Shown here: positions 27,032-54,381 of the stretch, one piece after another
How the letters are laid out: each line of letters begins with the position of its first letter
How positions within the stretch are numbered: position 1 is the stretch's first letter
From: a bacterium
GTDB taxonomy: Bacteria; JADJOY01
Assembly (NCBI GenBank): GCA_046331705.1
Contig: JAXLQJ010000006.1
Location: 186,001 to 245,392 of the forward strand
Direction: 5' to 3'
DNA: 59,392 bases
Position numbers and translations under genes: made by a program
Notes under the pieces: generated by a model
Database searches by the model: none
The model's input: the letters and a program-made list of their open reading frames with translations, nothing else
What the model was told of the DNA's origin: nothing

Positions 27032-27140
27032 GGGCGCTCGGTGCTCGTGGAGGCGGCGGCTCGCCGGCGGAACGGCGCGGCCACCGGACCTCGCCCGGCG
27101 GGCCGACACCTGCGCGACCGCGCGCGTGGCTCGTCGTGCG

Positions 27141-28619: not shown

Positions 28620-28718
28620 CGAGCGACGAGCAACGCGGTGGGATGCGGCCGAGCCCACGCCGCCGATCGATCGATCCGACATGTAGATCCCGCAACGGGG
28701 AAAAGGGAGGCGACGGCC

Positions 28719-28792: not shown

Positions 28793-31027
28793 TCAGGTGC
28801 GCGCGGGCAGCTCGATCGTCTCGTCCTGAAGATCGGTGATCGGCAACGTGCCGCCCGGCCCGAGCACCCATTCGATGAAATCCTGATGGAAGCGTCGATG
28901 CCGCAGCCGGGCTCGGACGCGGATCGGCTGGGGCGTCGAGTCGGGCACGGTGAACGCGAATCGCGCGACGTCGCTGGTGCCGCTCGCGAGCCGCCGCTGG
29001 TTGCGCACCGTGGCGAGCTTCCAGGTCTCGTGGTGCGTCAGGCGGTTGCCGTCGTCGTCGAACCAATCCTCGCCGAAGCGGTAGGCATCCGGGGGAACCC
29101 GGCCGTGCTCGTCCGGCACCCCCGAGCTCCACACCACGGCGCCGTTCGCGTCCCGCGCCTCGATCTCGAGCCACACGTCGACCAGATCCGGGATGCCGGC
29201 CGGCCAGCCGTGGCCCACGCCGCGGTTGGTGGTGGTCGCGACGAGCGTGACCGCGCTGCCGCCTTCACCGGCAGCGGCCTCGGTCCCGAGGTCGAGCGTC
29301 ACGATCTTCGATTTGAGCTGGGTCTGCACCCACTCGAGATTCTCGGCGTGGGTGAACTTCGCCTGCTGCACGCCGCGGAAATAGCGCTCCGCGTACGCGT
29401 CGTAGGCGGGATCGTTGGCGTAGTACGCGGGAATCGCGGTGTTCGAGGACAGGAAACGGTGCCCCTTGATCTCGGTCGACTGGTACGACTCCATCGTCGC
29501 CGGCATGTGGCACGAGTGGCAGTTGCGCGCCTCGTGCTCGGGCGGCGGCTTGGCGAACGGGCTGTCACGCCACTCCTGGACTCGCTGAGTGATCACGGGC
29601 CGGTGGGGATTGATGGCCTCGGGCACGGTGTGGCGGTGACACGCCTCGCAGAGCCGCAGGTCGTCGATCGTGCCGCGCCGATCGAGCTCCGCGCGGTGCT
29701 CCTCGAGGTAGAGCACCGTCATCAGATACGAGGACTTGTCGATGGCGCGCTCGAAGAAGAGCGGCGTCGCGCCGAGCACCAGGCTCGCGTCGCCGGGTCG
29801 CGGCAGCAGGTGCGCCGCCGCGTGGCAGGCGACGCAGGTGACGCCTTCGTTGGCGATGCCGGTGGTGGGGGTGCCGCCCTCGTCGATCTGACCCGCGGCG
29901 AGATTCACCGGGTCGTGGCAGCCCGCGCAGTAGCGCGTCGCCGCGATGCCTCGCTCGGCCGCCAGCGCGCCCATCGCCTTTTCCACGAAGACGTTGCGCG
30001 CGTGACGGTGGCCCGAGATCGCCCATTGCTTGCCGATGTCGGTGTGGCAGCCCTCGTACGAGCACGTGTTCGCCTGATTGAGGAACCGCGCCGGCACCAG
30101 CTGGCGGGACGTGGTCTCGAAGCGCGAAGGCGCGAACGCGCCGGCTCCGAACGGGAGCTGGTAGGTGCTGGGCGGCGCCACCGTCCGGTAGAGGTCCTTC
30201 GGCGTGGCCTCGACGAAGCGAAAGAGGCCGCTGAAGTGCAAGTTCACCTGACCGTTCGCCAGCGCCCACGGCGCCAGCGGCACCAGCGCCGAGATCGCGA
30301 GCGCGATGAGCGTCTCGCGGCGTCCGAACGAGGGCACCCGCGCCGCGAGCGTCGCCGGCGCCGGGCTCTTCCGCTCGCGCCAGCGGCGCTCCGCCTGGAT
30401 GTGCGCGATGACCAGGAACGGCAGCACCAGCGAGCCGTACTCGTGTACCGGCAGGAAGATGCGCTCGCTCGGACCGCCGAGCACGGTGAACGCGAGGCCC
30501 ACGCCGAGCGTCACCGCGGTGAAGATCGTGAGCCGCTTGCCCCAGCGACGCTCGTTGGGCACGGCGGTCGGTCGCCACGCGACGATGTGCTGGAAGAGGT
30601 AGATGCCGAAGAGCGGCGCCGCCGTCCTGCCGGCGAACATGTGCCACATGAGCAGCTGGAACGCGAACGGCGACGAACGGTCGCCGAGCTTGAGGTAGAG
30701 CGCGCTCCACACGCAGAAGAACAAGAGCCCGAGCATCAACAGGTACAGCCGGGGCAGCCAGCGCCAGAACGCCTTCACCTCGCTCAGGATGAAGGCCAGC
30801 ACCACGCCGACGTCGAGCGTGATCGAGAGGATCCGCCACTGGATCGAGAGCCCGTGCTGCTCCCACGGATAGCCGAGCCACCACGAGAAGAAGAGCCCGG
30901 GAAGTTGTTGCAGCAGCACGAGCCCGGCGAAGCCGAGCAAGAAGATCGTGAGCCGCCGCTTGCGCGGGTGAGTGGGAAGGGGGAGCTGGGAGAGCTTGGG
31001 AAGCTTGAGCTTGGGCAGACGGGGCAT
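28793..31027 (-). CDS. Membrane-anchored multiheme c-type cytochrome (c554/c552-like core), paralog A
   Basis: N-terminal TM domain; heme motifs CSYEGCH, CAGCH, CVACH, CEACH, CHSCH; C-terminal beta-rich domain TTNRGVGHGWPAG..D..WLE. Confidence 0.85.
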   Translation of the reverse strand: MPRLPKLKLPKLSQLPLPTHPRKRRLTIFLLGFAGLVLLQQLPGLFFSWWLGYPWEQHGLSIQWRILSITLDVGVVLAFILSEVKAFWRWLPRLYLLMLGLLFFCVWSALYLKLGDRSSPFAFQLLMWHMFAGRTAAPLFGIYLFQHIVAWRPTAVPNERRWGKRLTIFTAVTLGVGLAFTVLGGPSERIFLPVHEYGSLVLPFLVIAHIQAERRWRERKSPAPATLAARVPSFGRRETLIALAISALVPLAPWALANGQVNLHFSGLFRFVEATPKDLYRTVAPPSTYQLPFGAGAFAPSRFETTSRQLVPARFLNQANTCSYEGCHTDIGKQWAISGHRHARNVFVEKAMGALAAERGIAATRYCAGCHDPVNLAAGQIDEGGTPTTGIANEGVTCVACHAAAHLLPRPGDASLVLGATPLFFERAIDKSSYLMTVLYLEEHRAELDRRGTIDDLRLCEACHRHTVPEAINPHRPVITQRVQEWRDSPFAKPPPEHEARNCHSCHMPATMESYQSTEIKGHRFLSSNTAIPAYYANDPAYDAYAERYFRGVQQAKFTHAENLEWVQTQLKSKIVTLDLGTEAAAGEGGSAVTLVATTTNRGVGHGWPAGIPDLVDVWLEIEARDANGAVVWSSGVPDEHGRVPPDAYRFGEDWFDDDGNRLTHHETWKLATVRNQRRLASGTSDVARFAFTVPDSTPQPIRVRARLRHRRFHQDFIEWVLGPGGTLPITDLQDETIELPART

Positions 31028-31239
31028 GTGTGGGCCGGAACGGTCGCGAGCGGCGGTGAGAGGCTATCGGTTCGCCCCACGCGCGCCAACGTGGGTTCGT
31101 GCCCATTCCCGCGCGAGGCCCGCTGGCGCGGATGGCGGTCGACTCGCCTGGAGGTGAACGGCTATCTTGAGCCCTCCCCGGTTCGCGCACCGCTCGCTCG
31201 TTCGTCCCGATCGTGCCTTCCTCGTCCGCCCCTGGTGCG

Positions 31240-33405
31240 ATGAGCGCTCGCCCGGCGCGCGCCGACGATCCCGCCACGTTGCGGATCGGGCGTCGCGAGC
31301 GCGCGCTGTGGCGCGAGCCTTTCTTCTGGCTGGTGCTGGCGCTCTTCGCCGCCGAGTCCGTGACCGGGCTCGCGATGACGTTCCTGCCGCTCGGGATCCC
31401 GCGTCTCGGCTGGTTCGAGATCCACCTGTGGGTGGCACGTGCGTTCGTCCCGCTCTTCGCCGTGTTCCTCTACCGGCACACGCGCGGCGTCGGCGGGCGG
31501 CGCGTCTACGTGGTGATGTTCGGCTACTGGCTCACGCTCTTCGTGATGCGTTTTCTGGGCGGCAACTCGCTCTTCCTCATCCTGCCGCTCACGATCTTCA
31601 TGCTGTGGTGGATGTGGCGCGCGCTGGTGCCATGGATGCGCGGCCTCGATCCGGCGGCGGCCGGGATCTCGTACCTGGTGTTCGTGGCGGTGCAGATCAC
31701 CATGGCGACGGGGATCGGCACGCACCTCGACGTGATGCTCGTCGACCGGCCGTTCATGCGCCACCAGGGAATCTTCTCGCTCAACTTCGCGGCGCTGCAC
31801 CAGTGGGCGGGGATCCTGCTGCCGTTGCTCGCGGCACTGCACCTGGGGTTGAGACGGCTCTTGGCGGCAGTCCCCGTCAGCCTGCAATGGCTGCGTCGGG
31901 TCCGCGCGCGGAGCCTCGCGCCACTCGTGCTGGCGAGCATGTTCGGGGTGGTGGCGTGGAACTGGAACTTGCGCCACCACGCCGAGAAGCACCCGGAGGC
32001 CTACGAGGACGTCGCGTGGGTGCCGACCGAGAAGGCGGAGTTCTGCGGCAAATGCCATTGGGACGAGTACCGGCAGTGGTCGGTCTCGTTGCACCGGTTC
32101 GCGGCGGAGAACGAGCTCTACGCCGCGGCGGTGCGCGTGACGGTGGAGCGCCACGGCGCGCAAGCGGTGGCGTTCTGCCATCGGTGCCACGATCCGACGT
32201 ACGAGCTTCGGCAACGCGCCGACGCCGCCGGTGAGCTCTCCGAGGGAGTGACCTGCGTCTCCTGCCACCGCGTCGTCGAGGTTCCGAGCGAGCCGCGAAA
32301 CGGCGATTTGCGCATCGGTCGCTTGCCGATTCCCGCCGGTGAGGACGCCACCCAGCCCGCCTTCCTGGGTCGGCTGGTGCGCTCGATCGAGGCGGATTCG
32401 CGCGGGCACCGCCACGACATGAACCCGATCAAGGCGCAGGCGACGATCTGTCAGTCCTGCCATCGGGTGGACATGAGCGTGGCCGGGCTGCACGGAGTGC
32501 TGGTCGAGGACACCGCGTCGTCGTGGTTCGAGGGTCCCTACGGCAAGGCACAGGACAACAGCTGCGTCCTCTGTCACATGCCCCGCATCAAGTCGTTGCC
32601 GTGGGAGCAGCGCGAGGCGCGCGGCCACAAGCATCCCCACCACGGCGTGTTCGGGCTCAACGAAGGGCTCTCGGTCATGGCCTCCGGCACCGGCGTCGAG
32701 GCCACGCTCGCGGAGCGCGACGCGACCGTGGCGGAGCTCATCCGCGAGTTCCCGGGCCTCAGCGCCATCCAGCAGATCTCGCAGTTCTCGCACGGCAGCT
32801 TCGACCCGCTCTTCAAGTTCAACCAGCGGCTCGCGCTGCGACCGCTCACCATCGATCTCACCGTCGAACCGATCGAGGCGGGGCGGCTCGCGATCTCCCT
32901 CGCCACCACCAACGTGCGCGGCGGTCACGCGCTGCCCGCCGGCGCCGACGATCTGAGCGAGACCTGGCTCTCGGTCGAGCTGACCGACGCGAGCGGCCGC
33001 GCGTTCGCGCTGAGCGGAGCCATGGGCGCGGACGGCGAGCGCGACCCCACGGCGCTCGAGCTCGGCGCGCGCTGGCTCGATCGCAACGGCGAGCCGCTCC
33101 GCCAGCACGACCTCTTCTCGCTCGGCCACGTCGCCGACGAGCGGCGGATCAAGTTCGCCGAGACGTTGCGCGACCGCATCGAGGTGCCGCGCCCGGACGG
33201 CCTCTCCGGGCGCGTGGTGGTGCGCGCGACGTGGAACTACCGCCGCGTGCGACCCCACGCGGCGCTCGACCTCCTCGGCGCACCGCGTGCCTTTCCCGTG
33301 ACTCGCCTCGGCGAGGGCGAGGTCGAGGTCACGCTGGCGCCGCTCGCGCCAGCCGCGGTGCCGCTCGCCGCCGTTGCGCCGCCGCAGCAAGAGCCCGCGA
33401 GCTGA
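31240..33405 (+). CDS. Membrane-anchored multiheme c-type cytochrome, paralog B
   Basis: TM domain; CGKCH, CHRCH, CVSCH, CQSCH, CVLCH; C-terminal TTNVRGGHALPAGADD..ETWL. Confidence 0.87.
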   Translation: MSARPARADDPATLRIGRRERALWREPFFWLVLALFAAESVTGLAMTFLPLGIPRLGWFEIHLWVARAFVPLFAVFLYRHTRGVGGRRVYVVMFGYWLTLFVMRFLGGNSLFLILPLTIFMLWWMWRALVPWMRGLDPAAAGISYLVFVAVQITMATGIGTHLDVMLVDRPFMRHQGIFSLNFAALHQWAGILLPLLAALHLGLRRLLAAVPVSLQWLRRVRARSLAPLVLASMFGVVAWNWNLRHHAEKHPEAYEDVAWVPTEKAEFCGKCHWDEYRQWSVSLHRFAAENELYAAAVRVTVERHGAQAVAFCHRCHDPTYELRQRADAAGELSEGVTCVSCHRVVEVPSEPRNGDLRIGRLPIPAGEDATQPAFLGRLVRSIEADSRGHRHDMNPIKAQATICQSCHRVDMSVAGLHGVLVEDTASSWFEGPYGKAQDNSCVLCHMPRIKSLPWEQREARGHKHPHHGVFGLNEGLSVMASGTGVEATLAERDATVAELIREFPGLSAIQQISQFSHGSFDPLFKFNQRLALRPLTIDLTVEPIEAGRLAISLATTNVRGGHALPAGADDLSETWLSVELTDASGRAFALSGAMGADGERDPTALELGARWLDRNGEPLRQHDLFSLGHVADERRIKFAETLRDRIEVPRPDGLSGRVVVRATWNYRRVRPHAALDLLGAPRAFPVTRLGEGEVEVTLAPLAPAAVPLAAVAPPQQEPAS

Positions 33406-34826
33406 TGCGGGACGCTGGGCGAATCGCGACGGAACGACCGCCGCCGGCGTGGCCGCGCGCCCAGCGCTGGCTCGTCCGGGCGGTCAACGCGCTGGTGGCG
33501 GTGGGCGTCGCGCTCGTCTGCGTGCTCTCGTATCCCCTCGCGGCGTCGTATCTCGGGCGAGCCACCCCGGCGCTCGCGGTCGCCCGCGTGGCGGGGGGGT
33601 GGTTGGGCCGGCCGCTCCCAGGGCTGGCGATCGTGCGCCGCGCGACCGCCCGGTTCGCATGGTTGCCGGTCTTGCGCGCGCCAGGCGCCGAGCTCCTCTG
33701 GGTCTCGCTCGCGTCGCTCTACGCCGTCTTTCTCGCGACCGCGGTTCCGGCGGCGCTGCGCGGTTCGGTGGCCGCCGGCGAGCTGCGGGTCGAGGATCTG
33801 GTACACGGGTGGAAGACGATGGCGTTGGGATGGTGTCCGGATCGGCAGCGCTTGGTCGCGCTCCACGGCAGCGGCGCCGAGCAGCCCGGCTTCAGCGTCA
33901 TCGACCTCTCCGACGAGCCGCCCGTCGCGCGCTTCCGCCCCTTTCCGTGGCGCGAGGACGAGAGCCCGTTGGTGGTGCTCTCCGCCCGCGGGCTCGCCCT
34001 CGCCCACGGGGCACGCTCGCGCCGGCGGTTGACGGTCGACGTGGATCGGATCGCAGCGGAGGCCACGGCGGAAGAGGGGATCGTGGCATCGGCCTACGAT
34101 CCCGAGGCCGAGCGCCTGTACCTGGTCTCGGATCGCAGCGCGGGCGCGGCCGGCGCCGCGCGTGGCGAAGTGCTCTCGATCTCGATCGATGCCTATCTCC
34201 GCGGGGAGGTGGCGTCGGCGCGGCGTTACCCGATCCCGGAGCGAAGCGGTGCGATCGCGCTGGCCGTGGATCGCACGACCCACCGTCGGCTGCTGGTCAG
34301 CGGCGGTCGCGGCACCGACGACGTGCTGGAGCTCGACCTGAGCACGGGCGCGCTTCGCTCGGTCCGCGTTCCGCCGGTGCACGCCGGTTTGGCGATCGAC
34401 GGCGCGCGGGGTCGCGCCTACGTGACCAACAGCACGCGTAGCTCGCTCTTCGCGATCGATCTCGAGCGCATGGAGGTGGAGCGCGAGATCTGGATCGGCG
34501 GCGTGGCCGGTCCGGTCGCCGTGCTCGCCGGCGTCGGCGCGCTGGCGGTCGGCACCCAGCTCACCGGCGAGCTCGTGCTGCTCGACGCCGAGACACTCGA
34601 GACGCGGGCACGGCTCGTCACCTGCCGCCGCGGCGATCCGTTCACCGGCTTCGCGGAGTCGCTGATCCTGGGCGAATCGCGCGATCTCGCGTGGGACGAG
34701 CGTGGCCGCGCGCTCTACCTGGCGGACGGCTGCGGCGTGCGCCGGGTGCGCCTGCCCGCCGGGTGGTGCGGCGGCGCCGGGTGCGCGGCGCCGCGAGCGG
34801 CGGCCGCCGTCGGGGAGCTCGGATGA
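33405..34826 (+). CDS. Membrane-anchored YncE-like beta-propeller protein, copy 1
   Basis: TGATG coupling to cytochrome B; N-terminal TM helices; blades GLAIDGARGRAYVTNS, RDLAWDERGRALYLADGCG. Confidence 0.75.
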   Translation: MRDAGRIATERPPPAWPRAQRWLVRAVNALVAVGVALVCVLSYPLAASYLGRATPALAVARVAGGWLGRPLPGLAIVRRATARFAWLPVLRAPGAELLWVSLASLYAVFLATAVPAALRGSVAAGELRVEDLVHGWKTMALGWCPDRQRLVALHGSGAEQPGFSVIDLSDEPPVARFRPFPWREDESPLVVLSARGLALAHGARSRRRLTVDVDRIAAEATAEEGIVASAYDPEAERLYLVSDRSAGAAGAARGEVLSISIDAYLRGEVASARRYPIPERSGAIALAVDRTTHRRLLVSGGRGTDDVLELDLSTGALRSVRVPPVHAGLAIDGARGRAYVTNSTRSSLFAIDLERMEVEREIWIGGVAGPVAVLAGVGALAVGTQLTGELVLLDAETLETRARLVTCRRGDPFTGFAESLILGESRDLAWDERGRALYLADGCGVRRVRLPAGWCGGAGCAAPRAAAAVGELG

Positions 34827-35977
34827 AGCGCTTGCACCTCGCGTGGGGCTGGATCTTCGCCATCACCTTCGCGCTCACGGGGGTGTGGATGCAGGCGCAT
34901 TTCCCCGCCGCCTACCACGGCGACGTCGGCGCGCGCATGCTCTATCGCTCCGCGCACGTGTACATCCTGCTGGCGTCGTTCCTGAACTGCTTGCTGGGTG
35001 TCTACCTCGCGCGGGTGGCGAACGCGGCGCGGGCACGCATCCAGAACGCGGGCTCTGTCCTCGTCCTGATCGCGCCGGTGATGTTCACGGTGGCGTTCTT
35101 CGTGGAGCCCGCGCCAGGAGTCTTGGGGCGGCCCTACACCGCGATCGGATTGTGGAGCGCGATCTTCGGCACGCTGGCGCACCTCGCGGCCATGCGCGGT
35201 CAGGGAGAGGCCCGCGCACGCAGTGCGGCGGCCGAGGTGGAGGAAGCGCCCGCCGACGCGGCGCCCGATGTCGTTGGGCGCTCGCTCAGGTGGTGGGGCC
35301 GCGCGTTGGTTGCGGGCGCGATCGTGCTCGCTCTCGTGGCATTCGCGTGGATGCGCACACGCACGTCGCCGCCCTCGACAGTCGCCCTCCACGAACACGG
35401 GGCCGAGGTCGTGGCGAAGACCACCATCGCGGTGACTCCCGTCGAGCGACGAGCGGTCGCGGACGCCGTCCAGGCTGGACGGCGCTTCGCCGATTGCGGC
35501 AACGGCACGGTCATCGATCTCGCCACCAATCGGATGTGGGCGGATGCCGACAACGGCAACGGCACCGACTGGCCAGGTGCCGCGTACTACGCGCGGATGT
35601 TCCGTGCCGGCGGCTACACGGACTGGCGGCTGCCGACGATCGCCGAGCTGCTCGAGCTGGCGCAGGGGTACCTGGGGCCGGACGGCAAGCCGGTGCCGGG
35701 TGCGCCCTCGGTCGATAGCTGGCTGCCCGTGGGCTACGGCGTGCCCTGGTCGTCGGAAGTCCGCGGCGCCGAGGCGGCCCGCGTGCACCTCGGAAGCGGT
35801 GCCGTCGGCTGGCTGCCGCAGGCGAGCACCTCCCACAATCGCGCCGTGCCGGTGCGCGATGGACGCGGTGCTCTCGCCGCGGCACCGCCGAGCGCCGCGC
35901 CGAGCGCTCGGGTCGTTCACGCCGAGCGGATCAGCGAGAGTCTGTTCCCGGCGGAGCCCACTGCCGCGACTCCGTGA
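34823..35977 (+). CDS. His-rich membrane domain fused to DUF1566 (Lcl C-terminal-like) domain, copy 1
   Basis: ATGA coupling; four TM helices with YRSAHVY, a linker and a fifth TM; then RFADCGNGTVIDLATNRMW...GGYTDWRLPTIAEL...WSS...PVR. Confidence 0.8.
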   Translation: MKRLHLAWGWIFAITFALTGVWMQAHFPAAYHGDVGARMLYRSAHVYILLASFLNCLLGVYLARVANAARARIQNAGSVLVLIAPVMFTVAFFVEPAPGVLGRPYTAIGLWSAIFGTLAHLAAMRGQGEARARSAAAEVEEAPADAAPDVVGRSLRWWGRALVAGAIVLALVAFAWMRTRTSPPSTVALHEHGAEVVAKTTIAVTPVERRAVADAVQAGRRFADCGNGTVIDLATNRMWADADNGNGTDWPGAAYYARMFRAGGYTDWRLPTIAELLELAQGYLGPDGKPVPGAPSVDSWLPVGYGVPWSSEVRGAEAARVHLGSGAVGWLPQASTSHNRAVPVRDGRGALAAAPPSAAPSARVVHAERISESLFPAEPTAATP

Positions 35978-36412
35978 GGCCACCATTCACGACGTGGATC
36001 GACCGACCTCCCAAACGGCGTGGACTGGCTCGTCGAAGCGCCGGGCATCGGGCGCCGCCCGAGTTGCGATCGGAACCGCGCCCACCGTCGGCGTCCAGAG
36101 GCGCATCGATACCGTCGTGGATGGCCCGAAGATGCCCGTGCATCCAGAAGTCCGCGAGTGCGAACGCGGTCGCGCGGACCGTGTGAGCGGGATGGGTTCG
36201 CGAGGGCCGCAACAGATCTCCACGACTCGCGCGGGCTCCGCGCCGGTGTCGGTATCTCGCTCGTCGCGCGTTGCGTGCTGGCGTGACCCGCGTCACGGCG
36301 GTCGGCACCGTGATCGCGCGTATCTCGCGGGGGTGGTTTCTGCCGGTCGCTCTCCGTGTCAATCTCACGCTCGCCACCCCCTGGCGTAGCCTCGGCCAGA
36401 CTTCGTCCTCGA

Positions 36413-37873
36413 ATGTCCACTTCGGTGCCCATGCGACGATGGGGCGGGCGCGTGTTGCGCGCCCTCGGATCCCGGCTGAGCGAGCTCGCCTTCGGATTCG
36501 GCCTCGTGGAGGCGCTCTTCGTGGGCGCGCTCTTCGTGCTGGGCGCGCGCTACGTCCCCGCTGGGCCGCCGATCGTTCTCGTGCTCTTTCTGGTGGTCCT
36601 GCGCGCGAGCGAGCCGGGTCGGCACCGCGCGAACCGCGTCTTCGTCCATTTCTTCTGGCTCGTGACGAGCTTTCTCGCCGTGACGGGAATGGCGGCGTCG
36701 TGGTCGGCGACCGATTCGACGCCCCAGCTGCTGGCGCGCGTGATGCACCAGGCGATGGCCGTTCCCGGGACGTTGCTGTGGGCCGTCTGGACCTATCGCC
36801 ACGTGCGGCGCGCCGCCCCCGCGAACGCGGTGGCTGTCGTCACCAGCGGCCGGATCGCTTGGCTCGCTCTCAAGGTCTCGTTGTGGAGCGGCGCGGTGGT
36901 GGCGCTGTTGGTGATCCTCGAGGGGCTCATCCCGGTGCACGTGGTGAGCCTGGGGATCGCCGCCGTGCTGGTGGCGGCGCACGTGGTCGTGGCGCGGCGC
37001 TGGCGAGCGCGCGAGGTCCGGGAGGCGTTGCCGGAGGACTACGTCGCGTTGGCGGGCCCATCCCTGGGGCGCGTGCTCGGCACCAGTGGAATCGCCGGGG
37101 CCGCGCTCGCGGCGCTCTTCGTGTGGGGGCCGCGAGGCTACGATGGCACCAACCTCTCGGTGGGCGTCGAGCAAGCGACCGTCGCCGCCCACGCCGAGTT
37201 CGGCGACGGCTTCGTGCGGACCGAGAGCGGCGCCGCGTACTCGCCCACCGTGCTCGGCCAGTCGACGACCTGCGGCAACCCCTCCTGCCATCCGTTCGTG
37301 TTCTCCGAGTGGAAGGTCTCGCCGCACCGTCGCACGGCGAGCGCGGCCTATCGCGATGCGGTCGAGGCCGAGGCCGCTTCGCGAGGTCGAGCCGCGGCGG
37401 CGAGCTGCATGAGCTGTCACGATCCCCTCTCGGTCCTCGCCGGCGCGGTCGGTGAGGACGGCGAGCTGACGACGCCGGAGGGACGACGCGAAGGCCTGTC
37501 GTGCTTGTTCTGCCACTCGACCTCCGTTCGTCGCGAGGGCGCCACGCGCCAGCTGGCGTTCCGTTTCCCGACGATCTTCGGCTCGGTCGCCCTCGACGCG
37601 CGCTCGATGTTGTCGTTGACGCCGCGCCATCGCGCCGAGCTCGCCATCGCGAAGGCGGGCTCGGACGATCTCTGCATCGCGTGCCACCGCATCCCGTCGC
37701 TCGCCACCGGTGACGAGCGCGCTCACCAGCAAGCGCGGATGCGCCCCGAGTGCCGTGGTGACGAGGGCTGCGTCGGGTGTCACATGCCGCGGTCGAGCCG
37801 CAACGCGCGACCCGGACAGCCGCTCGCTCCCTCGCACGCGTTCGTCGCGCGGCTCGAGGCGCCGACGCCATGA
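36413..37873 (+). CDS. Membrane-anchored multiheme c-type cytochrome, paralog C (lacks C-terminal beta domain)
   Basis: TM domain; CGNPSCH, CMSCH, CLFCH, CIACH, CVGCH, ending at SHAF. Start uncertain (36413 or 36431). Confidence 0.83.
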   Translation: MSTSVPMRRWGGRVLRALGSRLSELAFGFGLVEALFVGALFVLGARYVPAGPPIVLVLFLVVLRASEPGRHRANRVFVHFFWLVTSFLAVTGMAASWSATDSTPQLLARVMHQAMAVPGTLLWAVWTYRHVRRAAPANAVAVVTSGRIAWLALKVSLWSGAVVALLVILEGLIPVHVVSLGIAAVLVAAHVVVARRWRAREVREALPEDYVALAGPSLGRVLGTSGIAGAALAALFVWGPRGYDGTNLSVGVEQATVAAHAEFGDGFVRTESGAAYSPTVLGQSTTCGNPSCHPFVFSEWKVSPHRRTASAAYRDAVEAEAASRGRAAAASCMSCHDPLSVLAGAVGEDGELTTPEGRREGLSCLFCHSTSVRREGATRQLAFRFPTIFGSVALDARSMLSLTPRHRAELAIAKAGSDDLCIACHRIPSLATGDERAHQQARMRPECRGDEGCVGCHMPRSSRNARPGQPLAPSHAFVARLEAPTP

Positions 37874-39891
37874 GATCGTGGATCGGCATCGTGGCGCTGC
37901 TGGCGACGGGCGCCTGGCTCGCGTTCGGGAATGCGTGGACGCCGGTGCTGTGGTCGGCGTTGGTGGCGCACGTGGTGGTGGGAGTGCTGGTGGTGCCGTT
38001 GGTGTTGCGGGGGCTCTTCCGGCGGCTGCGTTCGTTCGTGCCGGAGCTGGCGCCCCAGACCGCGTTCGCGACGCTCGTGCTGGTGGTGCTGGTGTTCCTG
38101 CTCCCCTACCTGCGCATACCCATCGGTCTGTCGCCTTCGCATACCGCGTGGGTGTGGCTCGCGCTGGCGGTGTCGGGCGCCGTCGCGCTGCGCGGTCTGC
38201 GCGGCTGGTTCGGGCGGGTGATGTGGTCGCCGCGGTTCGTGGTGGAGCTGCTTCACGCCCTGTTGTGGGCGATGGCGGCGACCACGGGACCGATGCTGGT
38301 GCTGCTCGGCGGTGGCCGGCCGTTGGCGATGCTGTTCGCCGTCCATCGCTTCGGCGGACTGCTGATGGTGGGGCTCGGCGTGATCGCGCTGGGCCGAATC
38401 GCCTGGGCTCGCATCCGCGACCGTCGGCCGATCGTCGTCCGCGAATGGGGCGTGGTGCTGGTCGCGACGCTGGTGATCGCGGCGGCGGCGGCCGAGCCGC
38501 GGCTGCGTGTGCGCGAGGTCGCGATCCATCTCTCGACCACGCCTTACGCCGAGCGCCCGGAGGCGGAGCGGGACGCCTTGCCGCTGCCCTTCGATCCGGA
38601 GCTCGCGAGCCTCGATCGAAGCTGCGGCGTCGAGGGCGGCTGCCACGCCGGCGTGCTCGCCGACCACGCGCGCTCGTCTCACGACCGGTCGATGAAGCCA
38701 CGGCACTTCCAGCGCACGCTCGAGCTGCTGGCGCACGAGACCGGAGCCGAGGAGACGGCGATCTGTCTCGGCTGCCATCAGCCGAGCGCTCTCGCGGAGC
38801 CGCAGCCGCCGCGGCCCGACTACGCGGCGCATTCGGACATGGGCTGTGTGTTCTGCCACAGCTTCTCGCGCGTGGAGCTGTCCGCGGATCGCACCCACTC
38901 GGTCATCCATCTGCGCCTGGACGAACGCGGGCTCGAGCCCTTCCGAGGCGCCGAGCGCAACGGCGGCGTGCTCGGTCGCTGGCTGCGCTGGGCGGTCGAT
39001 CTCACGCCACGGGCTCACGGCCGCGCGCTCGCGCCAGCGGTGTTGAAGAGCGACGCGGCGTGCCTGGTCTGCCATCAGGCGCAGATCGAGCCCGCGCCGG
39101 CGGCGCGAAGCTGCGTCACCTGTCACATGCCGCCCCGCCAGCAGCTGCGCCTGGCGACCGAGAACGAGCCGGAGTCGCTGGCACGAAGCCATCTCTTTCC
39201 GGGCACCAACACGCTCCTGCCGCTGGGATTGGGAGATCGCTCGACGGCAGCGCTGCTGGAAGCCTGGGCCTCGAGCGAGATGCTCACCGAGGATTTCCCG
39301 TTCGAGGAGTACCGCGCGATCCCCAGGGCATTGCCGACGCTCGGTCCCGAGCGATTGGGCGAGTTCCGCTACGTCGACGTGGCCATCGACACCTCCGCGC
39401 CGCGCGAGCGGGGTGGTTCGTGGCCGCTCGTCGTGCGCACCACGAATCTCTCGATCGACCACGCGTTCCCAGCAGGTCCCATGGACTTGCTCGAGATGTG
39501 GCTCGAGCTCGAGGTGCGGGACGAGACCAGCCGCGTGCTCTTCGTCAGCGGCCAGCGCGACTCGGCGGGGCTGCTCGCCGCGGACACGCACCGCATGGGC
39601 GGACACGCCCTCGATCGAGACGGGCACCGCCTCGAACGCTACCGCGTGTGGCGCAGCGCGGGGGACGTGGTCGAGCGTAGCCTCGACCGAGGAGAGAGCA
39701 CCATCGATCGCTTCGAGGTTCCACTTCCCGCCGACGTCGGCCAGCGATTGACGATCCGGGCGCGCTGGCTCTACCGCGAGATCAACCCCGAGTTCGCGCG
39801 CTGGGCGTACGACGGACAGCCGCCCGAGCTGCCTGTCATCGAGGTCGCGCGCGGGTTCGCCCAAGCGCCCGTGCCCCGCGTCCGCTCGTAG
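37870..39891 (+). CDS. Membrane-anchored multiheme c-type cytochrome, paralog D
   Basis: ATGA coupling; TM domain; CGVEGGCH, CLGCH, CVFCH, CLVCH, CVTCH; TTNLSIDHAFPAGPMD..EMWLE. Confidence 0.85.
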   Translation: MRSWIGIVALLATGAWLAFGNAWTPVLWSALVAHVVVGVLVVPLVLRGLFRRLRSFVPELAPQTAFATLVLVVLVFLLPYLRIPIGLSPSHTAWVWLALAVSGAVALRGLRGWFGRVMWSPRFVVELLHALLWAMAATTGPMLVLLGGGRPLAMLFAVHRFGGLLMVGLGVIALGRIAWARIRDRRPIVVREWGVVLVATLVIAAAAAEPRLRVREVAIHLSTTPYAERPEAERDALPLPFDPELASLDRSCGVEGGCHAGVLADHARSSHDRSMKPRHFQRTLELLAHETGAEETAICLGCHQPSALAEPQPPRPDYAAHSDMGCVFCHSFSRVELSADRTHSVIHLRLDERGLEPFRGAERNGGVLGRWLRWAVDLTPRAHGRALAPAVLKSDAACLVCHQAQIEPAPAARSCVTCHMPPRQQLRLATENEPESLARSHLFPGTNTLLPLGLGDRSTAALLEAWASSEMLTEDFPFEEYRAIPRALPTLGPERLGEFRYVDVAIDTSAPRERGGSWPLVVRTTNLSIDHAFPAGPMDLLEMWLELEVRDETSRVLFVSGQRDSAGLLAADTHRMGGHALDRDGHRLERYRVWRSAGDVVERSLDRGESTIDRFEVPLPADVGQRLTIRARWLYREINPEFARWAYDGQPPELPVIEVARGFAQAPVPRVRS

Positions 39892-39960
39892 GGCGCGGAC
39901 TCGTCTCGCACCGGCGGTGGCGCCGCCGGGGACGCGAGCCGGTCCCATCTCAGCCCTGCC

Positions 39961-40077
39961 CTCACCACCGAGTATCAGCACGACGAGTTCGGGAACGTGA
40001 AGGTCACGACCCAGTACGTGGATGGTGATCCGATCGTCACGACCTCGACGTATGACGCCAACGGGAACCCCCTGACA
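39961..40077 (+). pseudogene. Orphan RHS/YD-repeat fragment
   Basis: Translates as LTTEYQHDEFGNVKVTTQYVDGDPIVTTSTYDANGNPLT, i.e. two YD-like units. There is no start codon ahead of the first unit, and it runs into the repeat array. Confidence 0.55.
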
Positions 40078-40158
40078 GGGTGCCACCCACCTTGCTGAAC
40101 CCCTGACAGGGTGCCACCCACCTTGCCCCCTGACAGGGTGCCACCCACCTTGCTGAAC
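40069..40158. repeat. Tandem array of three identical 26-mers CCCCTGACAGGGTGCCACCCACCTTG (REP-like)
   Basis: Copies at 40069-40094, 40100-40125 and 40127-40152. Each contains the palindromes CCCTG-A-CAGGG and GGGTG-C-CACCC. Confidence 0.92.
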
Positions 40159-40350
40159 GCGGGCGTTGAACGGGTGCCCCGCGATCTCGACTGACCGCAG
40201 CAACCTCCTCGGTGAGGGCGTTCTCGAAGGCGTTGCGGGCAAGCGAGTGGACGATAGCGATCGCGAGGAGCGTCGCTGCGCGCACGACGCACACGTCCCG
40301 CGTTCACGACGGTGTGATCGTGCTCGATCGATCTGACGCTGCGAACGTCG

Positions 40351-41274
40351 CTACGTCTGCAACGGGACGATCAAGGGTCGCCAGGGCGGAAAGGTGAACG
40401 CCGGGAACCCCACCCGGAGCGCTCCCTCACGAAAGCGCGCCGAGACGTCGCGATAGGTTGCGACGAGACTGCGCCAGCGCTCCCGAAACTCCTGCCAGAG
40501 CGCGCGCCGCGTCGTGTGACAGAGCGGTTGCGGCGAGTGATCGGATCGCGTCGGTGCGTCGTTCGCGTCCTGGCGGAGGATCTTCTTCACGCCGAGAACC
40601 GGCTTGCCGCGATGCTGCTCGCGGAGCGCCTGCGCCCGGCGCTCGACGGCGCGCACGATCGCGTTCGGATCGAGCACTCCTCCGTCGCCGTCGTCGACCG
40701 GCGTGATCGTGACGGTCTCCTCCTCGAAGAAGTCCTCTTGTTTGACCTTCTTCCCCGCGCGCTGGGCGTTCGCCTTGGCGAGCTCGTACGCGGTCTCGTT
40801 GAGGCGACGAAACCGGAAGGTCTCGGGCTGCTCGCTCTTCGTCCAGAGCAAGATCCCGGGCCAGTCGCGCCAGTCCTCGAGTAATCGATCGTCGATCGGG
40901 TTGCAGACGAGGTAGGCGAGGCGCTCGGCCACGGCCTCGTCGTCGAGGATGGGCTCGGCCGAGAAGCGTCGATGGAAGACCGGCCCGCGCCGCTCGCGGA
41001 GTGCGTTGACGTCCTTGGCGAGCTTGCCGAGGAAGTAGCCGCAGAAGGCACTCAGCGAGCCGTCTCGATCCGTCACGCACGCGTGCAGGTGATTCGATGC
41101 CACGTAGAGCGCGTGCGCCTGGATTCCAGGAAAGTGCTTCAGCGCGCGCCCAAACCAGAACCCGACGCGTTGGTTGAGCGCCGCGCTCGGGACCAGGAAG
41201 AACCGCGCCTCGAGTGCCCGCGTCGTGACGAACCAGCGGGTGCGCGGCTGAAGCCAGCGAATCGGTCGCGCCAT
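40351..41274 (-). mobile_element. HUH-family (IS200/Y1, REP-associated tyrosine transposase-like) transposase
   Basis: MARPIR, FVTTR, SNHLH (HUH), RGPVFHRRF, LAYLVCNP (catalytic Tyr), DWPG; flanked by repeat arrays. Confidence 0.85.
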
Positions 41275-41290
41275 GGCGCAGTTGCGCATC

Positions 41291-41305
41291 GCACTCCGCG
41301 TGCCG
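41291..41305 (-). promoter_or_regulatory. Possible sigma54 (-24/-12) promoter of the transposase
   Basis: The minus strand reads CGGCACGCGGAGTGC (GG-N10-GC), ending 16 nt before the ATG. Confidence 0.3.
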
Positions 41306-41527
41306 CGTACCGGGCGCGAGATCACACGCTTTTGCACCGCACGCCGGCGCGCGCTGCGCCCGGAGCTTCGCAGGTGGTGCGGCCGCGAGGGCGCGCTCCG
41401 CTCCTGGTTCCTTCCCCCGTCCGGATTGGTGACCTGCCCGGCATTCCTCGGGCCGCTCGCTCCTGAGACGCGGCCTCTCCGTTCGTGGCTCGGCCCGGAC
41501 CGCGCCTGGGCCGGATACCAGCCGGCC

Positions 41528-41663
41528 GCGCGCAGATCGGAGGGTGGCACCTGTGCTGCTAGGGGGGCGGCGCGCAGATCGGAGGGTGGCACCTGTGCTA
41601 GGGAGGCGCGCAGATCGGAGGGTGGCACCTGTGCTAGGCACCTGTGCTAGGGCACCTGTGCTA
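41528..41663. repeat. Tandem array of three identical 30-mers GCGCGCAGATCGGAGGGTGGCACCTGTGCT plus two 13-mer partial copies (REP-like)
   Basis: Copies at 41528-41557, 41570-41599 and 41606-41635. GGCACCTGTGCTA recurs at 41637-41649 and 41651-41663. Confidence 0.92.
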
Positions 41664-41675
41664 TCCCTGTCGAAC

Positions 41676-43109
41676 ATGGCGCCCGATCGAGCGGTCGAGC
41701 AGCGCGGAGCGCCTCTCACGGATTCGCGGACGCAGCCATCGCGAGGTCGACGCGCGCGACAGTGGGCGTGGGCGATTGCTCTTGCGATGACCGTCCTCGG
41801 GCTCGCGCCGAGCTCGCTGGTGTTGGCGGAGGCCTACCTCGGACGGGCCGGGCGCATCGCGCTCGTGGTCGCGCTGGTGGCGGCGCCCGTGATCGGCCGC
41901 CCCATCCCGATGCTGGGGTGCATCCGCGCCGCGACCCGGCGCGCGAGCACCCTGCCGATCTTCTCCCGGCCCGGTTTCGAGCTCTGGTGGTGCGTGCTGC
42001 TGGTGCTCTGGAGCGTCGGGCTCGCGACGGCGTTCCCGGGCCATCTACGCGGCGCGCTCGGGGCCGAGATCATCCGTGTCGAGGACCTGGCACACGGGTG
42101 GAAGGCTTCCCGAATCGGCTGGGCGGCGGAGCGTCACGAGCTCGTCGGCGTGCATGCGGACGGCGCGGACTATCTCGGCTTCACGATCGTGGACGTGTCG
42201 GGCACGCCGCCGGTGTCGCGCTTCTTCGCCGCTCCTTGGGACAACGCGGTGCTCGACCTCACGATGCTCGGCGCGCACGGGCTCGCCGTGGCCCACACCG
42301 AGCACGACGACAAGAGCTTCCTGATCGACCTCGATCGGCGCATGGCAGAGACACGGCCGGAGGCCGGCGTCATCGCGTCGGCCTTCGACCCGGTGAACGA
42401 CCGCATCCACGTGATCCAGCGGGGGAAGCGCACCGCGATCACGGGCGGGGACACCGCGGTACTCACGCTCGACCTCGACGACTACCTCGCTCAGCGCTGG
42501 AGCGAGGCCCGGCGCCACGAGCTCGCGACTCCCGAGGCGCCCACGGCCCTGGCAATGGACCCGCGCGACCCGGATCACCTCTACGTGCGCGGCGAGGGCG
42601 GCACGCGTGGCATCGCCGACATCGACCTCGCGAGCGGCGCGGCGCGTACGCTGGACTTGCCGCCGCCCCTCGGTGGTCTCGCCGTCGACGCGGCGCGCAG
42701 GCGCGCATACGTCACCAACGGAGCGCGCAGCTCGCTCTACGAGATCTCGCTCGACGGCTTCGACCTCGAACGAGAGGTGTGGCTCGGCGGCGTCCCCGGC
42801 ACCCTGGACGTGCTGACGGGCACGGGCGCGATCGCCGTGGGCACGCGCATGACGGGCGAGCTGCTGGTCCTCGACCAAGACACGCTCGACGTCCACGTCC
42901 GGCTCAAGACCTGCTGGCGAAAGGACCCTGCCTTCCGAGCAGGCGCAGCGCTCTTTCTGGGCGAGATGCGCGAGCTTCGCTGGGACGAGCCGAGCCGCAC
43001 GCTGTTCGTGGCCGACGTGTGCGGGCTGCGCCGCGTGCGCTTCCCCGCGGGCTGGCGGATCCGCGGAGCCGATCCGGAGACGAAGGCGCCAGCGGGAGGT
43101 CCCACGTGA
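41676..43109 (+). CDS. Membrane-anchored YncE-like beta-propeller protein, copy 2
   Basis: Paralog of 33405-34826: RVEDLAHGWK vs RVEDLVHGWK, RRAYVTN, TGELLVLD, LRWDE...VADVCG. Confidence 0.78.
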   Translation: MAPDRAVEQRGAPLTDSRTQPSRGRRARQWAWAIALAMTVLGLAPSSLVLAEAYLGRAGRIALVVALVAAPVIGRPIPMLGCIRAATRRASTLPIFSRPGFELWWCVLLVLWSVGLATAFPGHLRGALGAEIIRVEDLAHGWKASRIGWAAERHELVGVHADGADYLGFTIVDVSGTPPVSRFFAAPWDNAVLDLTMLGAHGLAVAHTEHDDKSFLIDLDRRMAETRPEAGVIASAFDPVNDRIHVIQRGKRTAITGGDTAVLTLDLDDYLAQRWSEARRHELATPEAPTALAMDPRDPDHLYVRGEGGTRGIADIDLASGAARTLDLPPPLGGLAVDAARRRAYVTNGARSSLYEISLDGFDLEREVWLGGVPGTLDVLTGTGAIAVGTRMTGELLVLDQDTLDVHVRLKTCWRKDPAFRAGAALFLGEMRELRWDEPSRTLFVADVCGLRRVRFPAGWRIRGADPETKAPAGGPT

Positions 43110-44404
43110 GAAAGCTGCACATTCTCTGGGGTTGGATCTTCGCCGGCTCCTTCGCCGCCAGCGGCTTCTGGATGCAGCACGCCTTTCCGAGCGCCTGGCA
43201 CGGCGACCGTGGCATGCGGATGTTCTATCGATCGGCCCACGTCTACATCCTGCTCGGCGCGCTCCTCAACTCGGTCCTCGGCGCCTATCTGCGCCCCGCC
43301 CGCACGCCCGTACGCCAGCGGGTCCAGCTCGCCGGGTCGGCGCTGGTCCTGATGTCGCCGGTGTTCTTCACCCTGGCGTTCTGGTTCGAGGCCGAGCCCG
43401 GCGGCATGAGCCGACCGCTCTCGGCAACGGGCCTCGCGGTCGCGATCTTCGGCGCGCTCGGCCATCTCTTCGCCACGCGCGAGCAAGGCCTGGGCCCACC
43501 CGCGGCGCTCGAAGGCGGCTGGACGCCGGCGCCTTCGAGCCCAGCGCCTGATGCCGCCGCGGGCGTCGCCGCACGGCCATCTCGGCCCGAGCCGGATCGA
43601 GTGCCGGAACGCGAGCCCCTGGTCGGGATCGAACAACGCATCGTGCAGGATTGGACCGCTTCGCGGACGGCGCTGGCGCGCGTGCGCGCGCGCCTCCGTG
43701 CGTGGGGCTGGCGCCGAGTCCTGGCCGTGGTCGTCGCGCTGGGCGCCGCGGTTCTGGGGCTCACCCGGGCGTCGCGGCGCCCGGCCGAGCTGCCTCGCGC
43801 CGTCGCCGAGGTCGAGGTCGAAAAGGTCCTGGCTCGCACCACGATCGCCGTCCAACCGGAGGAGCAGGCCGCCGTGCGCGAAGCCGCTCGGGCGGGACTG
43901 CGCTTCGCGCCGGTTCAGCTCGATGCCGTGATCGACCTCGAGACCAACCTGATGTGGGCCCCGCGCGACAACCGCAACGGCTCGAGCTGGGAGGAAGCGC
44001 GGCTGTTCGCGGAGTCGTACGAAGCTCGCGGCTACTCGGATTGGCGTCTTCCCACGATCGAGGAGCTGCTCGCCCTCTCGGAGGGGATGCGCACCGGAGG
44101 GCCCGAACCGGCGCCGGGCTCGCCCTCGGTGGACCCGACGCTGCCCGTGGGCTACGGCGTGCCGTGGTCGTCCGAGCAGCGCGGCACCGAGGCGGCGCGC
44201 GTCCACCTGAGCAGCGGCTCCGTCGGCTGGGTGCCGCAGACCAGCACCTCGCACAATCGCTCGCTCCCCGTGCGCGATGGCGGCGCCAGCCGTCCCCCGC
44301 CGGCCGAGGAGGTCCGCGCGGAGCGCGCGTTCGTACGCGAGGTCAGCGACCGACTCTTCGCCCCGCGCGACGCGCAGGAGCCGCGGCTGCGCGCGCCCCC
44401 CTGA
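43106..44404 (+). CDS. His-rich membrane domain fused to DUF1566 domain, copy 2
   Basis: GTGA coupling; LHILWGWIF, FYRSAHVY, VIDLETNLMW, GYSDWRLPTIEEL, PVGYGVPWSSE, STSHNR. Confidence 0.8.
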   Translation: MRKLHILWGWIFAGSFAASGFWMQHAFPSAWHGDRGMRMFYRSAHVYILLGALLNSVLGAYLRPARTPVRQRVQLAGSALVLMSPVFFTLAFWFEAEPGGMSRPLSATGLAVAIFGALGHLFATREQGLGPPAALEGGWTPAPSSPAPDAAAGVAARPSRPEPDRVPEREPLVGIEQRIVQDWTASRTALARVRARLRAWGWRRVLAVVVALGAAVLGLTRASRRPAELPRAVAEVEVEKVLARTTIAVQPEEQAAVREAARAGLRFAPVQLDAVIDLETNLMWAPRDNRNGSSWEEARLFAESYEARGYSDWRLPTIEELLALSEGMRTGGPEPAPGSPSVDPTLPVGYGVPWSSEQRGTEAARVHLSSGSVGWVPQTSTSHNRSLPVRDGGASRPPPAEEVRAERAFVREVSDRLFAPRDAQEPRLRAPP

Positions 44405-48877: not shown

Positions 48878-48970
48878 GCGGATCGCCAGGCTCGTTCACT
48901 CGCGCTCGCGACGGACGCGCGCCGCCGTCCGAGCGGCGGCGACCGGCCGGCGGCGGCTCCCCGGAGATCC

Positions 48971-54359: not shown

Positions 54360-54381
54360 GCCGAAGCGAGGACCAGCGCAG

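Follow-up and report, generated by a model that had tools for sequence, protein, structure and literature searches.

Membrane-anchored five-heme cytochromes and their β-propeller neighbors at a locus of an activated-sludge bacterium

The range of substrates open to bacterial respiration or oxidation is set by inner-membrane cytochromes that connect the quinone pool with reactions in the periplasm, and to our knowledge few such proteins are understood (CymA, ImcH, CbcL, and NrfH). Here we describe a stretch of bacterial DNA of 59,392 nucleotides with a G+C content of 71% (hereafter the window; positions 186,001 to 245,392 of contig JAXLQJ010000006.1, assembly GCA_046331705.1, lineage JADJOY01), in which the locus at 28793–44404 encodes four membrane-anchored five-heme cytochromes (CytA to CytD) together with two copies of a pair composed of a β-propeller protein (Prop1 and Prop2) and a membrane protein that ends in an Lcl_C domain (TMLcl1 and TMLcl2). 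Three described proteins come closest to these cytochromes. CbcL of Geobacter sulfurreducens, according to the accessible part of its report, is an inner-membrane quinone oxidoreductase in which a six-helix di-heme b domain is fused to a nine-heme periplasmic domain (PMC9129911). A “pentaheme cytochrome family” (PHC) that joins cytochrome c552, ExtKL, and GSU2801 is proposed in the available portion of another report, where c552 itself has no assigned role (PMC11976967). MccSep, which is ExtKL (GSU2937–2936) of G. sulfurreducens, is presented in the accessible part of a preprint as a soluble periplasmic homotetrameric polysulfide reductase (PDB 9WT8) with a five-heme cap and an immunoglobulin-like (Ig-like) stem, whose active site is a His/Cys-ligated heme 2 beside a selenocysteine of the stem (bioRxiv 10.1101/2025.11.18.688581).

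The four cytochromes of the window belong to a widespread, unstudied family of inner-membrane cytochromes and represent a new architectural combination, in which the c552/MccSep fold sits on a probably CbcL-like membrane anchor. The most interesting lead that they provide is a broad and unstudied pairing of this family with β-propeller proteins. What looks like a duplicated three-gene module in the locus is one conserved CytB–Prop1–TMLcl1 unit and a relocated two-gene cassette, Prop2–TMLcl2. The genes of the locus lie where the original prediction, made from the letters of the DNA alone, had placed them, with four diverged, paralogous five-heme membrane cytochromes of which CytA is on the minus strand and divergent from CytB. 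The start/stop couplings named in that prediction are likewise present at four junctions: TGATG at CytB/Prop1, ATGA at Prop1/TMLcl1 and at CytC/CytD, and GTGA at Prop2/TMLcl2.

In an alignment of 23 family members, the five heme motifs and four additional histidines (H294, H399, H477, and H572 in CytB numbering) are invariant, and they are kept in 150–151 of the sequences in a wider alignment of 151. Both the motifs and these distal histidines are intact in all four cytochromes of the locus. A profile built from the 23-member alignment matches the pentaheme cytochrome c552 of Thermochromatium tepidum (5ZE8) with an E-value of 3e-20, over a region that includes the C-terminal GHxFPxG motif, and matches Geobacter MccSep with an E-value of 3–5e-6; CytB alone matches 5ZE8 with an E-value of 2.6e-6. 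The AF2 model of CytB (pLDDT 74.3, pTM 0.70) contains seven helices between residues 36 and 259, a helical heme domain, and a β-sandwich at residues 545–708. This model aligns with 5ZE8 at a Foldseek E-value of 2e-11 and a VIA Z of 21.7, with a root-mean-square deviation of 3.6 Å and 23% identity over 321 residues. The view that the cytochrome resembles nothing recognizable therefore has to be given up: its heme and Ig-like domains are homologous to the solved 5ZE8 and MccSep, and their fusion to a putative b-type anchor parallels CbcL. Its exclusion from the Nrf, Hao, Mtr/Omc, and ACIII systems is upheld, as the Pfam and NCBIfam matches are all below threshold (21 against 209 bits for OmcA/MtrC, 16 against 184 for NrfB, and 17 against 134 for NrfH) and no ActA-type match is listed among them.

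Each of the four cytochromes, estimated at about seven transmembrane helices, has 5–6 hydrophobic segments before its five heme sites. All five sites are CxxCH in CytB, while in CytA, CytC, and CytD a CX4CH site (the form found in CytA) or a CX5CH site comes first and is followed by four CxxCH sites. A pattern of four CxxCH sites and one CX3–5CH site is seen in most of the 147 closest relatives considered below. CytC has no counterpart of the C-terminal β-sandwich domain of ∼200 residues that is present in CytA, CytB, and CytD. The soluble character that defines the c552-type PHC family is not seen here, with seven predicted transmembrane helices in CytB and 2–9 hydrophobic segments in the 147 relatives. 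As regards heme attachment, the maturation genes that the original prediction proposed to look for are present in the genome in the form of both systems, with CcmF- and CcmC-like genes on contig C1 and a ResB–CcsA fusion on contig C8. An extra CcsA-like gene lies at C5:219091-219702.

The best structural matches of the membrane domain (residues 17–222 of the CytB model) are three di-heme cytochromes b, namely HyaC of hydrogenase-1 (VIA Z 10.2, 137 residues aligned), the superoxide oxidase CybB (8.9), and FdnI (8.2). Near-universal histidines occur on two helices, in 147–148 of the 151 sequences; one is H196, and the other is assigned to H71 or to H89 by different alignments. H210, 14 residues past H196, is kept in 110. 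From the sequences, we infer one b-heme in the membrane domain and two in many members. Ni_hydr_CYTB, DUF4405, and Ferric_reduct are related heme-b families, and CytB scores 19.7 bits against DUF4405 (PF14358; cut-off 26.7 bits, E-value 0.0013). Cytochrome c maturation requires a heme-c domain to be periplasmic, and the Arg-rich N terminus followed by seven helices leads us to infer this location for the heme-c domain here. DUF4405 proteins are described in the accessible part of one report as binding heme b (PMC11334425).

An HMMER scan of 1.84 billion representatives yielded 9302 matches at E ≤ 1e-3, a number that falls to 5557 with a limit of 1e-10 and to 1502 with one of 1e-30; clusters of the family are counted at 50% identity. 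Among the top 150 listed relatives, 147 were examined, and all of these have 2–9 hydrophobic segments before the first heme site. Most (101 of the 147) share less than 35% identity with any open reading frame (ORF) of the window's genome, and their Lys/(Lys + Arg) ratios span 0–0.6, which indicates that they come from organisms of varied composition. A word-based homolog search returned 7, 3, and 9 clusters for CytB, Prop1, and TMLcl1, respectively; the low count for CytB is an artifact of sensitivity, because the HMMER scan found thousands. By profile search, 85 of 401 sampled genomes contain a match at E ≤ 1e-20, in most cases to a soluble form in which the match starts near profile position 200–240. 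The genome from which the window derives contains 24 matching ORFs by crude gene calls, or 21 if three identical ORFs of contig C63 are counted once, and 23 places by profile search.

We examined nine loci beyond the family-level lineage of the window in which the match starts at profile position 160 or earlier. In six of these nine (genomes G082, G390, G158, G044, G246, and G084, from five families), the cytochrome is followed by a gene for a propeller with FG-GAP_3 and UnbV_ASPIC domains, in G390 with one opposite-strand ORF in between, and the cytochrome frequently carries a C-terminal TPR arm. In a seventh locus (G312), a PQQ_2 propeller lies upstream of the cytochrome. Of the remaining two, G329 has LVIVD and spermine-synthase-like neighbors, as the window's genome does, and G122 has a peptidase downstream. 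Other paralogs in the window's genome adjoin LVIVD propellers (two cases), PQQ_2/FG-GAP proteins, and B12-radical-SAM and GDSL genes, and on contig C42 a fourth Prop-like gene lies directly upstream of a cytochrome paralog. Downstream of cytochrome paralogs, both this genome and the distant G329 encode proteins of ∼710–770 residues in which a spermine-synthase-like domain is weakly recognized (L017 11660-13981, L013 13825-16125, and L054 2343-4481). We found no literature on the pairing of a multiheme cytochrome with an FG-GAP/ASPIC propeller in a search that took in few subscription journals. As a tentative proposal, which we put forward with considerable doubt, the membrane b/pentaheme-c cytochrome and an extracytoplasmic propeller might form a widespread, undescribed two-part redox machine. 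The propeller, of the FG-GAP/ASPIC kind in many phyla and LVIVD, PQQ-like, or YncE-like in this genome, would handle the substrate, with the cytochrome as its electron-carrying connection to the quinone pool. One of the roughly two dozen versions in this organism would then have recruited TMLcl to clamp the propeller, perhaps aimed at an envelope glycan or a surface-bound substrate.

The partner proteins in the window have a much narrower distribution, and within what was searched Prop and TMLcl are a speciality of one family-level lineage, which is represented in the genome collection by five genomes, with the next kin related only at the level of “same domain.” Full-length Prop is found in all five, and only short blade-like stretches match in 3 of 395 other genomes. 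The propellers have no Pfam match and a weak NCBIfam L-NosZ match (E-value 7.7e-5), and the Atlas model of Prop1 superposes on seven-bladed propellers of the YncE/lactonase type with TM-scores of 0.55–0.62 by query and 0.40–0.76 by row. In both TMLcl proteins, Lcl_C (PF07603, formerly DUF1566) scores above the Pfam cut-off of 34.9 bits, at 45.9 and 53.8 bits, and PF07603 is precomputed on all nine relatives. His5, His45, and His120 are invariant in the four-transmembrane domain of TMLcl1. This domain occurs in three of the five lineage genomes and once among the 395 others, as a stand-alone ORF of 175 residues; Atlas features link it to unnamed Acidobacteriota proteins of ∼130 residues, and its Atlas structure rows all fall below the bar for naming. 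The fusion of a four-transmembrane domain, a fifth helix, and Lcl_C was not found outside the lineage in the sampled genomes or by homolog search.

The stand-alone homolog (E-value 3e-25) lies in G082 at C6:46490-46855 (L070 8353-8880), between leuA-like and cysteine-synthase-like genes, a neighborhood of ilv/leu/cysteine-synthase genes that is uninformative on function. Elsewhere, G082 also carries a cytochrome of the same family fused to a membrane domain.

That the propeller and the Lcl_C protein behave as a unit, as the original prediction had it, is borne out by the overlap of the Prop stop with the TMLcl start, which every one of the five loci considered retains, the window contributing two of them and G001, G002, and G005 a single one apiece, as well as by a complex model that passes its controls. 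The model of Prop1 with TMLcl1 has an ipSAE of 0.79 (median of three runs) compared with 0.00 for the best of three controls. Of 157 solved complexes, 116 attain this mark, as do 2 of 215 mismatched pairs; these counts are approximate, small custom alignments having been used here. From run to run, at least 77% of the contacts coincide, and the partner pLDDT is at least 75. Prop1 and TMLcl1 are thus predicted to bind each other, through an interface between residues 128–136, 158–177, and 214–216 of Prop1 and residues 277–338 and 363–376 of TMLcl1, a part that comprises Lcl_C and the C-terminal tail. On both sides, the contacts map to invariant alignment positions (P172 and P173 in Prop; G304–S310, E317–V321, W330, and P332 in TMLcl), which suggests that the lectin-like domain may serve first of all to hold the propeller. 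The original prediction had spoken of a membrane-bound redox complex with a ligand-binding CLec domain. Its membrane-bound multiheme redox proteins are there, but the modeled Lcl_C domain docks onto the propeller, a role other than the proposed ligand binding, for which it nonetheless leaves room.

The link between CytB and the pair is likely to be functional, judging from the conserved overlap of CytB with Prop1 and the general cytochrome–propeller pattern described above. G001 and G002 both retain the TGATG overlap, and in G005, which belongs to a different genus, CytB (65% identity by profile search and 66% by tblastn) also adjoins a Prop–TMLcl pair. Conservation of the neighborhood, a check named in the original prediction, is therefore seen in two genera. 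The CytB ortholog of G003 is cut by a contig end and the G004 genome is 74% complete, and both are uninformative on this point.

As to the history of the locus, the original prediction read the order of cytochrome, propeller, and transmembrane DUF1566 protein as a three-gene module that occurs twice. The first run is as described. The second is not contiguous: ∼1.8 kb separates CytD from Prop2, and this gap contains an opposite-strand gene resembling a REP-associated tyrosine transposase (RAYT) between two inverted three-copy REP-like arrays with the cores GGTGCCACCC and GGGTGGCACC. The RAYT-like gene scores 38.7 bits against an NCBIfam equivalog cut-off of 80, and its protein has 13 tblastn matches on 12 contigs of the genome. 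The position of this RAYT/REP element is the exact junction of the Prop2–TMLcl2 cassette and the cytochrome locus. The sister genome G001 is collinear across two radical-SAM genes, CytA, CytB, Prop1, TMLcl1, CytC, and CytD, and there CytD is followed directly by the ortholog of the 238-residue membrane protein found past TMLcl2 in the window, with no Prop2 or TMLcl2 between them; this protein therefore marks the ancestral end of the locus. G001 carries its Prop2 ortholog (82% identity) on a separate contig, where arginase-like and amidohydrolase genes precede it. The Prop2–TMLcl2 pair of G002 (84% and 78% identity) has the same arginase-like/amidohydrolase context, with glycosyltransferase and BNR genes on its other side. 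In the window's genome, the orthologs of the genes that flank the cassette in G001 and G002 adjoin each other on contig C58 without the cassette, and it follows that the two-gene cassette moved.

The two copies of the pair are homologous but diverged, as had been predicted, with 46% identity between Prop1 and Prop2 (BLASTP E-value 2e-116) and 48% between TMLcl1 and TMLcl2 (6e-109). Pairs among the four cytochromes share 26–32% identity (1e-9 to 2e-40). We rejected the idea that the four are recent tandem duplicates, given this identity and a closer paralog of each elsewhere in the genome. In a quick tree of 20 paralogs of this genome, from which three duplicates on contig C63 and one fragment of 168 residues were left out, CytB and a paralog from contig C28 are sisters (support 100), CytD falls into a different clade (99), and CytC into a third (93), together with a short cytochrome of contig C7. 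With CytB and CytD placed in separate deep clades, neither of the cytochromes that precede Prop1 and Prop2 is a copy of the other. What was duplicated is consequently the two-gene Prop–TMLcl unit and not a three-gene module, in keeping with the absence of Prop2 and TMLcl2 after CytD in G001. The short-plus-long arrangement of CytC and CytD recurs on C7 as a pair of 510 and 708 residues that is likewise divergent from a third family member. That three-cytochrome arrangement, with a gene of 817 residues divergent from the pair, is found both at C7:74714-80853 and at C63:1684-7823 with identical lengths and scores, which probably reflects duplication in the assembly or a large and recent duplication event. 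Separately, a sludge-metagenome DNA contig of 4035 letters tracks the window from 36262 to 39944 and then continues with 352 unplaced letters just before the REP array. It may represent a population variant without the RAYT/Prop2 insertion.

The explanation toward which we lean, with modest confidence, is that these proteins are bc-type membrane cytochromes with a heme-b-like anchor and a five-heme domain of the c552/MccSep fold that work with an extracytoplasmic propeller partner, CytB being coupled to Prop1–TMLcl1 and Prop2–TMLcl2 having been relocated. The membrane domain, with its conserved histidines and likely one or two b-type hemes, would continue into a periplasmic domain of five hemes and an Ig-like stem and would trade electrons with the quinone pool or the cytoplasmic side of the membrane. 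The chain of c-hemes would carry electrons to or from a propeller in contact with it, and the propeller in turn would bind or convert a substrate. Expansion within the lineage would have led to about two dozen copies, one of which, CytB, would be cotranscribed and translationally coupled with Prop1–TMLcl1. Prop1 would be anchored in the membrane, with its periplasmic face bound to the Lcl_C domain of the five-helix TMLcl1, and Prop2–TMLcl2 would be a relocated duplicate of the two-gene cassette that landed beside CytC–CytD together with the RAYT/REP element. A number of observations weigh against this explanation. The fifth distal heme ligand is variable, with H632 in 111 and M456 in 113 of the 151 sequences, so that a catalytic heme instead of a pure relay is possible. 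The Z values of 8–10 for the membrane domain of CytB are within the range common for helical bundles, and the weak Pfam matches to b-type families, which occur in 4 of the 23 members (Ni_hydr_CYTB in two, DUF4405 in one, and Ferric_reduct in one), are near an E-value of 1e-3 and all below cut-off. The complex prediction expresses model confidence on small alignments of 7 and 9 rows, and the AF2 model of the TMLcl1 monomer is poor (pLDDT 59.7, pTM 0.35). The association of cytochrome and Prop comes from one narrow lineage, in which synteny is possibly just inherited, and only 2 of the roughly two dozen cytochromes of the genome are near a Prop–TMLcl pair. In G001 and G002, moreover, no cytochrome lies beside the Prop2 cassette, whose neighbors are genes for glycosyltransferase-2, BNR, arginase-like, and amidohydrolase proteins; CytB and the pair are convergent in G005 and not co-directional; and a third Prop paralog, on contig C17, has no cytochrome beside it. 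With Prop2–TMLcl2 and this third paralog away from cytochromes, the evidence argues that the pair can also work without one as a neighbor.

These last three arrangements also favor an account in which Prop–TMLcl serves the cell envelope on its own, outside redox chemistry, for example in the binding or processing of glycans or surface polymers, and stands beside CytB only by inherited order in one lineage, with the cytochromes acting alone or with other partners. The same account is favored by the window's wealth of envelope genes (YfhO-like, GDP-mannose dehydratase, phosphomannomutase, and GDSL/SGNH), by the lectin-type nature of Lcl_C according to its Pfam name, and by a sequence check that found no heme motif in Prop or TMLcl. 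We nonetheless consider it rather unlikely, as three genomes have the stop of CytB overlapping the start of Prop1, the adjacency to CytB outlasts rearrangement between genera, and the family adjoins other kinds of propeller in distant lineages (6 of 9 loci) and in this genome, a pattern into which CytB–Prop1 fits. It seems improbable to us that the cytochromes are themselves terminal enzymes like MccSep (a polysulfide/selenite reductase), with turnover at a c-heme beside the Ig-like domain and the propellers as accessories. Such a role would fit the homology and the fold common to MccSep, whose active site, in the available part of its description, is flanked by heme 2 and by an Ig-like-domain loop, as well as H572 of the GHxFPxG motif, which is invariant in the Ig-like domain across the 151 sequences, and the presence of just four invariant distal histidines for five hemes. 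However, neither the 23-member nor the 151-sequence alignment contains a conserved cysteine outside the five heme motifs, so the fold is shared with MccSep and its defining His/Cys ligation and Sec/Cys are missing. We give very little credence to the idea that the cluster reflects only paralog expansion and shuffling by mobile elements, with some copies, such as the short CytC and the relocated Prop2–TMLcl2, being nonfunctional. The 24 paralogous ORFs, the 13 matches to the RAYT-like gene, the lack of a C-terminal domain in CytC, and the RAYT/REP element at the junction are all in line with this idea, but all frames are open with a typical GC3 of 0.85–0.92, the G001 and G002 orthologs are intact at 71–90% identity, the short-plus-long pair recurs on C7 with matching tree positions, and no cytochrome of the four has lost a heme motif or distal histidine.

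The features of the locus and of its surroundings are collected in Table 1. The spacer between TMLcl1 and CytC is ∼0.4 kb. Outside the locus, the YfhO-like (GT-C type) match is confined to the C terminus of an ORF of 1550 residues. Six B12-binding radical-SAM genes lie in the window, all far under the NCBIfam equivalog cut-offs, with BchE, HpnJ, and a “ladder” lipid radical-SAM protein as the best partial matches, and genes of this kind also adjoin several other cytochrome paralogs in the genome. Three large proteins contain a GDSL/SGNH hydrolase domain, one of them with TPR repeats as well. An LVIVD-repeat propeller also flanks the locus, and two further cytochrome paralogs, at other places in the genome, have such a propeller downstream.

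Table 1. Coordinates of the locus and of neighboring features, counted from the first letter of the window
Feature	Position	Strand	Description
CytA	28793-31027	-	744 residues; polytopic membrane domain, five heme-c sites, C-terminal β-sandwich
CytB	31213 (alternative ATG 31240)-33405	+	730 residues; seven predicted transmembrane helices 36-259, five CxxCH 278-455, Ig-like β-sandwich 545-708
Prop1	33405-34826	+	473 residues; transmembrane-anchored YncE/lactonase-like β-propeller
TMLcl1	34823-35977	+	384 residues; four-transmembrane domain, linker, fifth transmembrane helix, Lcl_C (DUF1566) domain
CytC	36356 (alternative ATG 36413)-37873	+	505 residues; short paralog, membrane domain and five heme sites
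CytD	37870-39891	+	full-length paralog
REP-like array	40068-40158		3 copies, ∼33 nt each
RAYT-like gene	40351-41628	-	match below NCBIfam cut-off
REP-like array	41523-41636		3 copies of 36 nt, inverted relative to the 40068-40158 array
Prop2	∼41676-43109	+	Prop1 paralog; start set at the ATG following the REP array
TMLcl2	43106-44404	+	TMLcl1 paralog
Membrane protein	44463-45179	-	238 residues; no family match
GDSL/SGNH proteins	3644-5899, 46330-48153, 48878-50647		
B12-binding radical-SAM genes	5946-7472, 25592-27199, 27141-28682, 52854-54356, 54238-55755, 57351-59390		
ORF with YfhO-like C terminus	7519-12168		
LVIVD-repeat propeller	50675-52813		

Near-identical copies of the locus (58–91% of sampled words) are found in 18 DNA runs that belong to 10 studies, whose sources are activated sludge, sludge, wastewater, anaerobic digester, and one unspecified metagenome; the many joints in these runs have sides of 20–25 letters and stem from mixed populations. 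Two metatranscriptome runs contributed 16 listed short contigs, most of 151–313 nt and one of 1411 nt, with 0–3 differing letters, that cover CytA to CytD, Prop1, the Prop1/TMLcl1 junction, the TMLcl1–CytC spacer, the REP/RAYT element, Prop2, and TMLcl2. Four pieces from one of these libraries lie on the window for only ∼26–31 letters; such libraries may contain DNA, and transcripts or operons are beyond what contigs can reveal. Few and short as they are, these contigs give no more than a hint of transcription. Activated sludge and wastewater are common habitats of the organism, whose roughly two dozen copies of the cytochrome may matter for the redox processes of treatment plants. A large cytochrome family with solved relatives of its heme domain, recurrently beside propellers, points to periplasmic redox enzymes of a class that has gone unstudied, and the predicted propeller–lectin heterodimer is a concrete, testable complex.

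We found no described system that matches the whole set, which comprises membrane redox proteins and an accessory pair. To this extent the original reading of the locus as a candidate for an undescribed system stands, but the parts of its cytochromes belong to known kinds, the c552/MccSep fold and the probably CbcL-like anchor. By analogy, the closest architectural counterpart appears to be CbcL, with a b-heme predicted in the membrane domain of the window's cytochromes. Likened by description, from the accessible part of the CbcL report, both combine a polytopic membrane domain, of the cytochrome-b type in CbcL and putatively so here, with a periplasmic multiheme c domain. As depicted there, CbcL has nine c-hemes in a largely disordered domain with no Ig-like stem, whereas the window's cytochromes have five hemes in a c552-type fold. 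With c552 (5ZE8) they share five heme sites in the same order, an α-helical cap, a C-terminal Ig-like β-sandwich, and the W..S.H and H..P.G motifs. They differ from it in that c552 is soluble and periplasmic while they carry a seven-helix membrane domain of ∼260 residues ahead of the heme domain, and in the first heme site, which is CX4–5CH in most members of the family. The two-domain fold of five hemes and an Ig-like stem is also that of MccSep, whose cysteine ligand of heme 2 and Sec/Cys in the Ig-like domain, as given in the available part of the preprint, have no conserved counterpart here. Relative to other proteins with Lcl_C/DUF1566 (PF07603), TMLcl is distinguished by the fusion of this domain to a histidine-bearing four-transmembrane domain and a fifth transmembrane helix. 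Finally, compared with the pairs that the family forms with FG-GAP/ASPIC propellers (CRTAC1-type) in other lineages, the window's cytochromes do not have the C-terminal TPR arm often seen there, and their partner is instead a transmembrane-anchored YncE-like propeller together with this Lcl_C protein.

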